DNA from: an uncultured bacterium
GTDB taxonomy: Bacteria; Actinomycetota; Acidimicrobiia; Spongiisociales; UBA5794
Direction: 5' to 3'
Length of the DNA: 64,000 nucleotides
Assembly: GCA_963801165.1 (NCBI GenBank)
Contig: CAWDDT010000005.1
Location: 224,001 to 288,000, forward strand
Shown: piece by piece, positions 41,098 through 45,369 of the stretch
Position numbering within the stretch: the first letter of the stretch is position 1
How the letters are laid out: every line of letters starts with the position of its first letter
Translations under genes and position numbers: made by a program
Notes under the pieces: generated by a model
Seen by the model: the letters and a program-made list of their open reading frames with translations, nothing else
Databases searched by the model: none
What the model was told of the DNA's origin: nothing

Positions 41098-42249
41098 ATG
41101 CGATTCCGAACCAAACAGATCCACGCCGGGGTGACACCCGATCCGACGACCGGTGCGATCCTGACCCCGATCCACCAGTCGACCACCTTCGTGCAGCCGT
41201 CCGTCGATGAGTACATGGCCACCGGGTACTCGTATTCGCGGTCGGGCAACCCGACCGTGCGGGCCTTGGAGATGAAGGTTGCCGCCCTGGAAGACGGCGC
41301 CGATGCAGCAGCCTTCGCCACCGGGATGGCTGCCACCAACGCAGTGATGCTGGCGATGCTCAACGCCGGCGACCATGTGATCTTCTCCGACGTCGTCTAC
41401 GGCGGTACCTACCGGCTGGCCACCCAGGTGTATCGCCGATTCGGCGTCGAATGCGAGTTCGTCGACACCTCGCATGCGGAGAACGTGGCCGCCGCTCTCC
41501 GGGACAACACCCGGCTGGTGTTCACCGAGACGCCGGCAAACCCGACGCTGAAGCTGACCGACATCGCCGCCGTCTCGGAGATCACGTCGGCCCGCGGCAT
41601 CCCCCACTGTGTCGACAACACCTTCCTCACCCCCTACTACCAGCGACCCTTTGAGCTGGGAGCCGACCTCATCGTCCACTCGACGACGAAGTACTTCGAC
41701 GGCCACAACGCGACCGTCGGCGGCGCCGTCGTGTCGAGGAACGACGAGTTCCAGGAAAAGATCAAGTTCATCCAGAACGCCACGGGGACCACCATGTCGC
41801 CGCAGATCGCCTGGCTGACCCTGCAGGGAACCAAGACCCTGTCGGAGCGGCTCGATCGGCAATCTGATAACGCCATGCAGGTCGCCCGGTTCCTCGAGAG
41901 CCACCCCAAGGTCGTCGAGGTCGCCTACCCGGGGCTGGAGTCGTTCCCGCAGCACGACCTCGCGAAACGGCAGGCATCCGGCTTCGGGGCGATGGCGTGG
42001 TTCGAGGTCGAGGGCGGGGTCGAAGCCGGGAAGAAGCTGATGGGTCTCGTGCAGTTGTGGACGCTGGCAGAGAACCTCGGCTCGGTGGAGTCGCTGATCA
42101 CACACCCCGTGACCATGACCCACGCCGCGATCTCGCGTGAGGAGCGGCTCAAGGTGGGCATAACCGACGGTCTGGTACGGATCTCGGTAGGGATGGAAGA
42201 CGTCGAGGACCTGATCGAGGACCTCGCCCAGGCGCTCGATCGGGTATGA
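41098..42249 (+). CDS. Cys/Met metabolism PLP enzyme (cystathionine gamma-synthase/lyase)
   Basis: YSRSGNPT, ETPANP, VDNTF, HSTTKYFDGH, AENLGSVESL. Confidence 0.93.
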   Translation: MRFRTKQIHAGVTPDPTTGAILTPIHQSTTFVQPSVDEYMATGYSYSRSGNPTVRALEMKVAALEDGADAAAFATGMAATNAVMLAMLNAGDHVIFSDVVYGGTYRLATQVYRRFGVECEFVDTSHAENVAAALRDNTRLVFTETPANPTLKLTDIAAVSEITSARGIPHCVDNTFLTPYYQRPFELGADLIVHSTTKYFDGHNATVGGAVVSRNDEFQEKIKFIQNATGTTMSPQIAWLTLQGTKTLSERLDRQSDNAMQVARFLESHPKVVEVAYPGLESFPQHDLAKRQASGFGAMAWFEVEGGVEAGKKLMGLVQLWTLAENLGSVESLITHPVTMTHAAISREERLKVGITDGLVRISVGMEDVEDLIEDLAQALDRV

Positions 42250-42734
42250 GCGACCCGGTGCTCACCACGATCGACGGCCTCGGCGTCGACTACGAGGTCA
42301 TCCCGTGCGACCCTCAGCTCGCAGATACCGCCCAGTTCTGCGAGGCGTACGGGTACTCGCCCGAGGACTCGGCGAACACGATCGTGGTGGTCGGCAAGGC
42401 CGACCCGAGGGTCTACGTTGCCTGCGTCGTGCTGGCCAGCACCAAGCTCGATGTGAACGGCACCGTGAAAAAGAAGCTCGGCATCCGACGTACCTCTTTC
42501 GCATCGGGTGATGAGACCGTCGCCGTCACCGGGATGACCATCGGCGGGGTCACCCCTTTCGGTCTCCCCAAAGACCTCCCCATCTGGATCGACGAACGGG
42601 TGATGGCCCGGGAGACGATCATCCTCGGCGGTGGCTCGAGGGACCGCAAGATCTCCGCCCCACCGGCAATCCTGACCGCCCTGCCCGCCGCCGAGGTGGT
42701 CACAGAGCTCGCCAAGGAATTCGAGCCGAGGTAG
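42246..42734 (+). CDS. YbaK/ProX (EbsC) aminoacyl-tRNA deacylase family protein
   Basis: TGMTIGGVTPFG, ILGGGSR. Confidence 0.85.
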   Translation: MSDPVLTTIDGLGVDYEVIPCDPQLADTAQFCEAYGYSPEDSANTIVVVGKADPRVYVACVVLASTKLDVNGTVKKKLGIRRTSFASGDETVAVTGMTIGGVTPFGLPKDLPIWIDERVMARETIILGGGSRDRKISAPPAILTALPAAEVVTELAKEFEPR

Positions 42735-42740
42735 CGAGCG

Positions 42741-42932
42741 ATGAAGACCATCCCCAACGAGCTCACCGCCGCGCTTGCAGCCAACCCCGAGGCGCAGCGC
42801 ATCTTCCTGGGCATGTCCCCGTCACATCAGCGCCAGTACGCGATGCACGTCGCCGAAGCAAAACGCCCGGAGACGCGGAGACGCCGGGCGGCACAGATGA
42901 TCCGCCTGATCCTCACCAAGGGCGACACGTAG
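42741..42932 (+). CDS. YdeI/OmpD-associated (OmdA-like) small protein
   Basis: IPNELTAAL..NPEA..F..MSPSHQRQY..HVAEAKRPETRRRR. GAGG SD. Confidence 0.8.
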   Translation: MKTIPNELTAALAANPEAQRIFLGMSPSHQRQYAMHVAEAKRPETRRRRAAQMIRLILTKGDT

Positions 42933-42961
42933 AGAGCTACGGCCGATACGTCAAAGGCGAC

Positions 42962-43125
42962 CACCGCTCGTCCTTCCCCCCTCGTCCGGCCCAAGAGGGC
43001 CGCCCGATCCCCCCGAAATGGGGGGATCACTACTTGCTTCCAGCTCACAGCGCACCGCTCGTCCTTCCCCCCTCGTCCGGGCTACGCCCGGCCGATCCCC
43101 CCGAAATGGGGGGATAGCTACTTGC
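42962..43125. repeat. Two direct copies of a REP-like double-hairpin element
   Basis: CACCGCTCGTCCTTCCCCCCTCGTCCG-[hairpin]-CCGATCCCCCC-GAAAT-GGGGGGAT..CTACTTGC at 42962-43037 and 43053-43125. Confidence 0.88.
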
Positions 43126-43214
43126 CCCCAACAGCCGTTCTCGGGCCGCAAGAATTCAGACCGGTGTCATGTTGCCAACATCTCTGTATCAAGTGGGCCC
43201 TCTACCGTGTCTCT

Positions 43215-43430
43215 TGTTAGGGGGACAGGGCATGGGATCGGCCGCCAAGACCGGTCCCAACGCCCAAGAGCGCTCCGGTGCCGCAACGCCGGGGGCTCCA
43301 GGAGACGGGTGGGCGATACGCTCCTCGCCCGGCGGGTACCGCACGACCTGCCGGCATCGAGGATCGCCGACCCCGGGTGGTAGGGCCGGTGACAGCCTCA
43401 CGACGTGAGGAAGTCACCGGCCGCTCCGTT
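43215..43430 (+). ncRNA. Candidate multi-hairpin small RNA
   Basis: Five consecutive stems with G-U pairs that work only on the + strand, repeated (C/A)CGC loops, an upstream TACCGT -10 element and a long terminal hairpin. Confidence 0.45.
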
Positions 43431-44516
43431 TCACACGTGGGTGATCGCCTGAACGTCACGCAGGGTCCGCCCATGGAACGCCGCGTACCGGGTGGCGACC
43501 TGCCGCAGCTCCCGGGTCTCGGCCACGGCGAGCGATCTGAGAAGATGTGCCTCGATGTCGATCTCGGAGCCGCCACGGCGCACTCGCCAACGACCGGCAA
43601 CCTCACCGTCGACGAGGATCATCCCCAACGGGAGGCCGCGGACATAACCGAGGGTCGATTCCCGACCCGTGGGATCGGAAATGTCCCGCGACTCCTGATA
43701 TCCCACGAGGTACTCGTCGTAGATCTCGACCAGATTCACGCGTGGCGAACGCATCGGTTGCGACGGGATCGGCTCGCCTGCCCAGTACGTCCGCCCGTCG
43801 TTTTCGATCTGGTGGAGCTGATCGCTCATCATGGCGATGCCCCGTCTGATGTCGGTGACCTTCAAGCCAGACCACCAGCGGAAGTCGTTGACTGTCGCCG
43901 GGCCGTGGCCGGTGAAGTAGCGCAGCGTCAGCTCGGCGAGTGCCTCGTCGGGGTCCGGTTGCGGTTGGGCCGGAAGGCGCTCGTCGAGGAGGGCGTATGT
44001 GGGCTGCTTGGCGCCAACGCCGCTGCACACGAGACCGGTCAATTCGGCGTGCATGACGATGTGAGCCAGCCGCAGACTGTCGGTGTCGATGCCGACGTTG
44101 GCGAGCTCCTCACCGATGGCGGCTCGGGAGAGCGATCGGCCCTGAAGTACGGTCGCGATTACGCGGTGACAACGCTCGAGTTCGTCGTTGTCGAGGTTGA
44201 CGTTGCGCATCTGCGACCCGGCCTGGATGAGAACCCTGGGCCCGGTGAGGGCAAGCCACGATCGCAGGTCTTCCGCGGCGACATAGTGCCAGGTGGGTCG
44301 GAGAACGTGGGTTCGGACCACAAGACCTCTGTCGAGCGACGCGGCGATATCGGTTGCGGTGGCGTCGGCGATGCGCTGCGCCATCGCCCAGGTCGCTGGC
44401 CCGATGTTCTGCGACTGGACCGCACCAAACCACGAGACTGCGTCATGGAAATCGGCGAATCGGGGGGCATCGAGACCGTGGACCGCCATTCGCAAGGCAG
44501 CGGGTTGAGGTTGCAT
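43431..44516 (-). CDS. HTH_42 winged-helix DNA glycosylase (AlkZ-like)
   Basis: AVQSQ (QxQ motif), RTHVLRPTWH, RYFTGHGPATVNDFRWWSGL, YDEYLVGY. Confidence 0.85.
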   Translation of the reverse strand: MQPQPAALRMAVHGLDAPRFADFHDAVSWFGAVQSQNIGPATWAMAQRIADATATDIAASLDRGLVVRTHVLRPTWHYVAAEDLRSWLALTGPRVLIQAGSQMRNVNLDNDELERCHRVIATVLQGRSLSRAAIGEELANVGIDTDSLRLAHIVMHAELTGLVCSGVGAKQPTYALLDERLPAQPQPDPDEALAELTLRYFTGHGPATVNDFRWWSGLKVTDIRRGIAMMSDQLHQIENDGRTYWAGEPIPSQPMRSPRVNLVEIYDEYLVGYQESRDISDPTGRESTLGYVRGLPLGMILVDGEVAGRWRVRRGGSEIDIEAHLLRSLAVAETRELRQVATRYAAFHGRTLRDVQAITHV

Positions 44517-44604
44517 CGTCGCACACTACCGGGAGGGTATGACGCGGTTCGGCCGGTGGTCCCACCAACCGTGAGGGACCACCGGCCGCGCCGTTTCCGT
44601 ACCA

Positions 44605-45369
44605 TCACATCGGTCCTTGAATCCTTCCGCGAGTGAGCGAGAGAACACTCAGCGACGTACGGGCCGCCAACTCGACGACGCTGGCTGCCAGCTTCGTCTC
44701 TTGGGTGGGTTGAGTTGGCTCGGTTGCGACGGGCGCCGGCCCGCCGGTCTCCGCTGCTCCGCTCGCCACCTCGGGGCCAGCCGGGGAAGCGTAGGGAACG
44801 GGATCATGGGCTACTGCCGGAGGCGTGGTTGGTGCGCCGGCCAGCCACCTCGAGACAAGTGCGGTCGTCTCCTCGGTGACGGGGATGCCACCTTCACCTG
44901 CGCCATGGATGGTGACGGCCATGGCTTCGGCGAAGTGTTCCGCCGGTGTTGCCGACCAGCCGGTTGCGTAGTCGAACCAATCACGGTCCTCTGGCAGATC
45001 TTGGGCGGCGTAGAAAGCTGTGGTGAAGTCCCCGTCGGCAAAGGCGCCGCATGCGAGGAAGGTGTGGTGGCTGAGCTCATGGACCACGATCGCAGCCATA
45101 CCCGACGTTGTATCGGTTGGGTCAATGACCACCTGACCGGTCTTGGTGCGATACTCGCCGCGGCGACCGTCGAGCTGCTCATACGTGATGGTCACCGACG
45201 AGGAACAGGTCTGGCGGACACCAAGGGAATCGAACCACTCGTCGTACGCCGTCGCGACGATCGATGTGACCTCTGTGGGGACTGCTGGAGAATCAGCAGA
45301 AGCGGCGGCTGGGGCTACGACGAGACTCGAGATCATCCCTAGCACCAGCAACGTCATCCATGACCGCAT
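44605..45369 (-). CDS. Secreted HExxH metallopeptidase-like protein
   Basis: Signal peptide ending AASA, VVHELSHH, downstream EHFAEA, Pro/Ala-rich tail. GAGGTG SD. Confidence 0.7.
   Translation of the reverse strand: MRSWMTLLVLGMISSLVVAPAAASADSPAVPTEVTSIVATAYDEWFDSLGVRQTCSSSVTITYEQLDGRRGEYRTKTGQVVIDPTDTTSGMAAIVVHELSHHTFLACGAFADGDFTTAFYAAQDLPEDRDWFDYATGWSATPAEHFAEAMAVTIHGAGEGGIPVTEETTALVSRWLAGAPTTPPAVAHDPVPYASPAGPEVASGAAETGGPAPVATEPTQPTQETKLAASVVELAARTSLSVLSLTRGRIQGPM

Follow-up and report, generated by a model that had tools for sequence, protein, structure and literature searches.

A candidate structured small RNA restricted to part of one genus of uncultured Acidimicrobiia

The enterobacterial small RNAs (sRNAs) MicL, CpxQ and SdhX are embedded in 3′UTRs and end at the same terminator as the operon that precedes them. 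RNAs of the CsrB/RsmZ type have a layout of tandem hairpins, and GGA is the motif that serves as the ligand of CsrA. For the 6C RNA (RF01066), C-rich hairpin loops are the defining feature. According to PMC6486639, the 6C sRNA binds mRNAs via C-rich loops without the aid of chaperones and is conserved among high-G+C Gram-positive bacteria. For the class Acidimicrobiia, a full-text literature search, judged from titles and the openings of abstracts, returned no described sRNA.

The locus described here is located in a 64,000-nt stretch of DNA from an uncultured member of this class (G000:C5:224001-288000, in the following called the window; G000 is the genome carrying the studied copy). Its features are listed in Table 1. 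In our main reading, to which a probability of roughly one half is assigned, positions 43216-43431 (+) encode a single-copy structured sRNA of ~215 nt, which would base-pair in trans and occurs in only part of one genus of the Acidimicrobiia. From the comparisons given below, a genuine gene for a small non-coding RNA, present in a few related uncultured Acidimicrobiia, is the most likely identity of the tandem-hairpin stretch.

Table 1. Coordinates of the element and its neighbours in the window.
Feature	Position	Strand	Basis or remark
Cystathionine gamma-synthase-like ORF (metB-like), 386 aa	41089-42249	+	named by eye, no Pfam scan
YbaK/tRNA-editing-domain protein	42246-42734	+	ORF list, Pfam
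OmdA-family protein, 63 aa	42741-42932	+	ORF list, Pfam
88-nt repeat, 1.8 tandem copies	42962-43125
Upstream box AGAATTCA	43151..43158	+	conserved among six homologues
-10-like hexamer TACCGT	43203..43208	+	family pattern TAC(C/T)(G/T)T; putative promoter element
Putative 5′ end and G-run leader (GGGGGAC)	43216..43227	+	start site by inference
P1: outer stem GGGC 43228-31 / GCCC 43262-65 around 8-bp hairpin	43228..43265	+	MFE
P1 inner stem	43234-43241/43251-43258	+	loop CCGCCAAGA
P2: 12-bp hairpin, one bulged G, loop CCGCAA	43268..43298	+	MFE, covariation
Single-stranded linker CAGGAGACGGGU	43299..43310	+	mostly unpaired in partition function
H3, loop UACGCUCC	43311-43330	+	possible; MFE prefers longer rod ~43306-43375
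H3/H4 rod	43311..43375	+	MFE; competes with short H3
H4	43329-43354	+	loop ACCGCACG at 43338-43345
Interrupted terminal stem of 16 bp	43384-43393/43413-43422 plus 43396-43401/43405-43410	+
Terminator-like hairpin GGCCGGUGAC...GUCACCGGCC, nested 6-bp hairpin, then CGCUCCGUUUC	43384..43431	+
AlkZ-like gene, convergent on element	43431-44516; stop codon 43431-43433	-	Pfam
DUF6782-like gene	44605-45369	-	26.5 bits, just below Pfam 27-bit cut-off

With the 6C RNA, the element shares a multi-hairpin, G+C-rich build and an actinobacterial host. Furthermore, its relatives carry an anti-Shine-Dalgarno-like C-rich loop (CCCUCCCGCA) of the kind that 6C uses on mRNAs according to PMC6486639, and no Hfq could be found in G000, which resembles the chaperone-independent type. 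However, the RF01066 model matched neither the window nor the element region (E<=10) nor six homologue loci (E<=1), and the element is much longer (~215 nt) and has another architecture. The loops of the window copy (CCGCCAAGA, CCGCAA and ACCGCACG) contain no C-run, the C-rich loop being confined to the relatives. The distribution differs as well. Only a few species, all of one genus, have the element, while 6C is given as conserved across high-G+C Gram-positive bacteria (PMC6486639).

In the window, the element sits between convergent genes. The gene 3′ of it runs towards the element in the window as well as in G011, G001 and G010 and, judged from sequence, also in G005. A riboswitch or another cis-acting leader was therefore rejected, because no co-directional gene follows downstream and the arrangement is convergent in every locus examined. 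In G010 (C7, locus L059, ~880-1400) the convergent DUF6782-like gene is apparently split into a 92-aa N-terminal ORF and a continuation in another frame, for which a frameshift or a faulty assembly of this metagenome-assembled genome (MAG) may be responsible. The opposite strand of the AlkZ-like gene contains a 452-aa open frame (43278-44636, +). Due to the Pfam match of the AlkZ-like gene on the minus strand, it was rejected as a gene and is regarded as an artefact of the high G+C content.

When positions 43131-43430 were compared with G000, they matched themselves alone, and the element is consequently single-copy. For this reason a dispersed repeat or MITE was discarded. Multiple copies exist solely of the 88-nt repeat next to it. 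The unit of this repeat includes the hairpin GAUCCCCCCGAAAUGGGGGGAUC, and it accounts for most of the 60 genome-wide matches obtained in G000 with the whole intergenic region, often in arrays. In Rfam, this repeat gives a weak match to Whalefall-1 (18.8 bits vs a gathering score of 37).

Folding of 43203-43430 resulted in -137.3 kcal/mol for the + strand, compared with a shuffle mean of -106.1 (z -6.24; 0/200 shuffles as good), vs a z of -3.38 with 1/200 shuffles as good for the minus strand. All seven homologous RNAs fold better than their shuffles (z -3.9 to -7.1), and in six of the seven the + strand is the better one. A reading made earlier from the sequence alone, in the following called the sequence-only reading, had named five hairpins, all of which were recovered at their positions in the sequence and in the MFE structure. 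It had also counted four G-U pairs in favour of the + strand. These were confirmed in the named hairpins (43238-43254, 43274-43293, 43279-43288 and 43334-43349), and within conserved stems such pairs become A-C mismatches if read on the opposite strand. A structured non-coding RNA on the + strand, ~215 nt long and with a terminator-like hairpin at its 3′ end, is supported as a prediction.

No Rfam family matches the element. Rfam 15 contains nothing that reaches the gathering score across the window; at E<=10, the region 42850-43550 gave chance-level sub-threshold matches only, and at E<=1 nothing near the gathering score was detected at the six homologue loci. A scan for tRNAs and tmRNA yielded none.

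For the identification of homologues, 61 related genomes (G000 included) were searched with BLAST, which revealed one real match, located in G011 (75% identity, E 4.7e-23). A two-anchor pattern scan returned 15 loci, nine from metagenomes and six from genomes, which were scored with model R1. Three of these were recognised. L028 belongs to the same strain as the window (99.5% identical, with an identical RNA region and one copy of the 88-nt repeat fewer), L040 is the G011 contig, and the metagenome contig L031 is a G011-like variant (144.7 bits). The other 12 loci were set aside, being either contigs without a score or matches by chance in other phyla. Furthermore, the YbaK-like locus was sought in the genus and matched in 12 of 15 genomes. 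When these loci were searched with filters off, divergent homologues in G001, G009 and G010 were recovered by the covariance model. The homologues of the four congeneric genomes G011, G001, G009 and G010 occupy a syntenic site downstream of the YbaK-like gene. The homologues that the sequence-only reading had called for as a check could thus be found in G011, L031, G001, G009 and G010 and, in truncated form, in G005.

Model R3, which covers P1 and P2 and was built from six sequences, matches five of the 15 genomes of the genus (one of the five being G000). Among the 118 remaining genomes of the family it gave one weak, incomplete match only (G100, L065 1388-1457, 28.9 bits); this belongs to another genus, lacks the interior of P1 and is probably due to chance. 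The same was judged for a match of 30 bits in G006, which is located inside a 405-aa ORF, and for one of 26.7 bits in G033, where P1 is missing. Among 151 genomes of the order, model R1 found nothing beyond G000 and the G033 match. Six genus genomes with a ybaK-like gene have no homologue within ~1.5 kb of that gene. The patchy distribution among the genomes of genus and family indicates that the element is dispensable.

In the P1+P2 alignment of six distinct related sequences, which was fitted to the model so that its figures lean towards structure, 91.9% of the cells pair, vs 33.9-47.2% with the partners slid by 1-3 columns; six pairs are changed on both sides, and 0/500 column shuffles reach the covariation score. 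The covarying stems anticipated by the sequence-only reading are borne out in this alignment, with the restriction that its few sequences are related and model-fitted. Helices 1 and 2 of P1 are paired to 95.5% and 86.7% over the six sequences (two pairs changed on both sides) and helix 3 of P2 to 93.1%, with changes on both sides in 4/12 pairs (e.g., CG:3 / UA:3). H4 could be compared in the window, G011 and L031, where all stem positions pair and the loop is identical at 8/8 positions. Aligned by loop register, 6/7 pairs differ and four of them are changed on both sides; aligned by sequence register (by eye), the differences amount to a double substitution, a paired insertion and three transitions between GU and GC, with pairing kept throughout. 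The linker CAGGAGACGGGU is invariant in the same three sequences and absent in the G001/G009/G010 type, and the sequence of H3 is not conserved. Between G000 and G011, P1+P2 are 78% identical, vs 57% at 4-fold degenerate positions within the ybaK-like gene nearby.

The same comparisons bear on the coding potential of the stretch. A 58-aa ORF (43232-43408) overlaps the hairpins and could be read as a small protein gene, as its ATG lies 6 nt past the Shine-Dalgarno-like GGGGGA and begins a stop-free frame of 58 codons. Such open frames are, however, expected by chance at ~70% G+C. Moreover, the ATG at 43232 has only a displaced, out-of-phase counterpart in G011 and L031, and none in G009 and G010. 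The indels between window and G011 comprise 2, 1, 2, 1 and 5 nt, none of them a multiple of three, and break the frame. BLASTP between the products of the overlapping ORFs revealed no similarity (E 9.5 and 2.0), and a Pfam search of the ORF gave no match. It is accordingly not conserved as a protein, and a small protein gene is scarcely credible. Due to the preserved pairing, the indels that are not multiples of three and the dissimilar ORF products, the stretch is interpreted as a structured RNA.

The family has a modular build. Its modules are arranged in the order box, spacer, hexamer, G-run, P1, P2, variable middle, CCCUCCCGCA-loop hairpin and terminator, with P1 and P2 as the shared 5′ domain. 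The middle modules (linker, H3 and H4 with its ACCGCACG loop) are present in the window, G011 and L031, and the latter two contain an additional hairpin, H5. In G001, G009 and G010, P2 is followed directly by the C-rich hairpin, without the middle modules. The C-rich loop, positioned just before the terminator, is invariant in all six other sequences. The window copy is the sole member without this hairpin and retains H4. Elsewhere in G000, the number of pattern matches to the C-rich loop equals that of a reversed-pattern control, and the two exact matches are located within coding frames and form no hairpin. In G005, a short locus of ~100 nt (L043 1128-1266, minus strand) with the same omdA and alkZ neighbours is made up of the box, the hexamer TACTTG and the hairpin with the C-rich loop, followed by the terminator. 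It contains neither P1 nor P2 and represents the deletion complementary to that of the window copy.

The missing hairpin could mean that the window copy is a decaying remnant, disabled by the loss of its functional C-rich seed hairpin, with the other hairpins persisting for lack of time. The loop in question is invariant in the six other sequences and has no hairpin counterpart elsewhere in G000, and the family has been lost in many congeners, with the complementary deletion in G005. For a remnant, however, P1, P2 and H4 are perfectly paired, and the paired changes relative to G011 keep the pairing. The P1+P2 identity also exceeds that at the neutral-like sites (78% vs 57%), and neither the promoter-like block nor the terminator is damaged. 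Decay is therefore considered improbable.

A further reading, put forward tentatively and considered rather unlikely, is that of a modular sRNA in rapid evolution, with congeners exchanging its interaction hairpins. According to this reading, G001, G009 and G010 would combine the P1-P2 scaffold with the C-rich seed, and G011 would have both seed types. G000 would have the ACCGCACG and linker seeds alone, and G005 the C-rich seed without the scaffold. If true, this would be a natural case in which, inside a single genus, seeds turn over and regulons are rewired.

The region 5′ of the hairpins was compared in six homologues. The box AGAATTCA is followed by 49 gapless nt and the TAC(C/T)(G/T)T hexamer, and all 61 columns from box to hexamer could be aligned without gaps. 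TAC and the final T of the hexamer are invariant in 6/6 sequences (the short G005 locus has TACTTG), as are three in-phase TCA triplets after the box (alignment columns 14, 25 and 47). GGGG, 7-11 nt past the hexamer, is likewise invariant in 6/6. In contrast to the RNA body, which is rich in indels, the block from box to hexamer has none in the six sequences. Its identity between G000 and G011 is 61%, close to the 57% at 4-fold sites, and the case for a promoter therefore rests on the gaplessness and the invariant triplets. The sequence-only reading had suggested TACCGT as a -10 element. The hexamer does fit the family pattern and lies at a fixed gapless distance from the AGAATTCA box in the five other homologues; a sigma-70 consensus scan of 42700-43700 called no promoter. 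A regulon search of G000 for a second site of the upstream box revealed none that was convincing. On sequence grounds, the gapless block next to an indel-rich body favours a putative own promoter, located inside the ancestral ybaK 3′ region.

At the 3′ end, the G+C-rich stem of the terminator-like hairpin (16 bp) is kept in seven loci and is followed in the family by a short GUUUC-type tract. The terminator scan made no call at the terminal hairpin, which is explained by the weak U-tract. In G002 and G007, the same terminator hairpin occurs alone, directly after the ybaK-like gene.

The position of the element also allows for a structured 3′UTR of the upstream operon (ybaK-like, omdA), in which the hairpins protect the mRNA from 3′ exonucleases or tune termination, without an own promoter and without a function in trans. 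The terminator after ybaK in G002 and G007 points to an ancestral operon terminator. As the box begins 14 nt (G011) and 31 nt (G001) past the ybaK stop, ybaK transcripts must run into the element. The gene 5′ of the element is co-directional in all six loci, and the sigma-70 scan without a consensus promoter would agree with a 3′UTR as well. However, the identity of this gene varies by species. The window and G005 have omdA at this place, while G011, G001 and G009 have ybaK. An unrelated 388-aa ORF takes the place in G010, where this extra gene plus a hairpin is located between the RNA and ybaK. The upstream gene is thus separated from the element by one hairpin in G010, and by two repeat hairpins in the window. 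Furthermore, the gapless block differs from the indel-rich RNA body, and the H4 loop, the linker and the C-rich loop of the relatives are invariant against varying stems, which argues for sequence-specific contacts beyond bulk structure. A mere 3′UTR is for these reasons rather unlikely.

In comparison with 3′UTR-embedded sRNAs such as MicL, CpxQ and SdhX, the element is similar in that a co-directional gene ends 5′ of it and the operon terminator follows it, and that the same terminator directly follows ybaK in G002 and G007. It differs in its varying host gene and in the conserved promoter-like block outside the coding sequence.

In the main reading, the sRNA would be located at the 3′ end of a metB-like / ybaK-like (/ omdA) gene string and would use the conserved hairpin there as terminator. 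Its transcription would start from an own promoter, consisting of TACCGT at 43203 and the conserved upstream box, with possible read-through from the upstream genes as a 3′UTR. By analogy to 6C, it may act in trans by base pairing through the exposed loops and the single-stranded linker. Loops and linker are invariant against variable stems, which again implies sequence-specific contacts, and given a G+C-rich actinobacterium with no detectable Hfq, direct base pairing to mRNAs is the simplest reading. The stretch is best read as an sRNA that is specific to its lineage and probably base-pairs. The candidate interaction sites of the window copy would be the linker CAGGAGACGGGU and the H4 loop ACCGCACG, common to G011 and L031. 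The C-rich anti-Shine-Dalgarno-like hairpin, kept by most relatives, would have been lost from this copy. In the relatives, the CCCUCCCGCA loop would be complementary to a ribosome-binding site of the GGGAGGG type. The search of G000 for sites complementary to the linker resulted in 31 sites at <=2 mismatches, one of them the own locus, vs 11 in the control, and provided no lead. Two sites with one mismatch are located inside long ORFs, and no target could be found among them.

The element is a genus-restricted sRNA candidate outside Rfam, supported by covariation. Its most interesting aspect is that hairpins are gained and lost modularly among congeners, and the family can serve as a small case study of the gain and loss of sRNA seed hairpins. 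A covariation-supported sRNA family with a modular history would furthermore provide an entry point to riboregulation in an uncultured but environmentally abundant class. The candidate is unsurprising in kind and has no bearing on a long-standing open question.

For the loops, the sequence-only reading had proposed a recurring CCGC core and, building on it, a multivalent protein sponge. In such an RNA, the loops (CCGC, or GGA for CsrA) would titrate an RNA-binding protein as in CsrB/RsmZ. The tandem-hairpin layout is common to both, CCGC is indeed present within three loops, and a CsrA homologue is encoded in G000 (PF02599, 92.9 bits, G000:C11:429832-429987). Yet the four CCGC in 228 nt are no excess over chance (2.7 +/- 1.4 in 1000 dinucleotide shuffles, of which 277 reach four). 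The core is also not conserved in the loops of P1 and P2. The P2 loops of the six homologues read CCGCAA, CCACAA, CCACAA, UACU, UACCG and UACCG, and the other homologues show GCAA or CGA at the apex of P1. Conservation is confined to the H4 loop (ACCGCACG, in 3/3 sequences having H4). GGA occurs five times (6.3 +/- 1.8 in shuffles), once mostly unpaired, and is enriched in none of the homologues. The Rfam Csr/Rsm models did not match in the window or the element region. With only four to five hairpins and no enriched or conserved repeated loop motif, the element differs from CsrB/RsmZ, and the sponge that had been suggested is left unsupported and seems quite improbable. The RNA may instead be a multi-seed one, the alternative given in the sequence-only reading.

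The genomic context of csrA points in the same direction, as the gene directly follows FliW-like and flagellin-family genes, and the CsrA of G000 is thus linked to FliW. In Bacillus subtilis, which has a comparable gene arrangement, the antagonist of CsrA is a protein, and an RNA sponge is not known to take part. At G000:C11:428332-431487 (L100), a FlgL/flagellin-family ORF, a FliW-like ORF and the CsrA gene are arranged in a row, the FliW-like and FlgL-like identities having been assigned by eye and without a profile scan. By these assignments, the Acidimicrobiia MAG carries a predicted flagellum-linked CsrA-FliW module.
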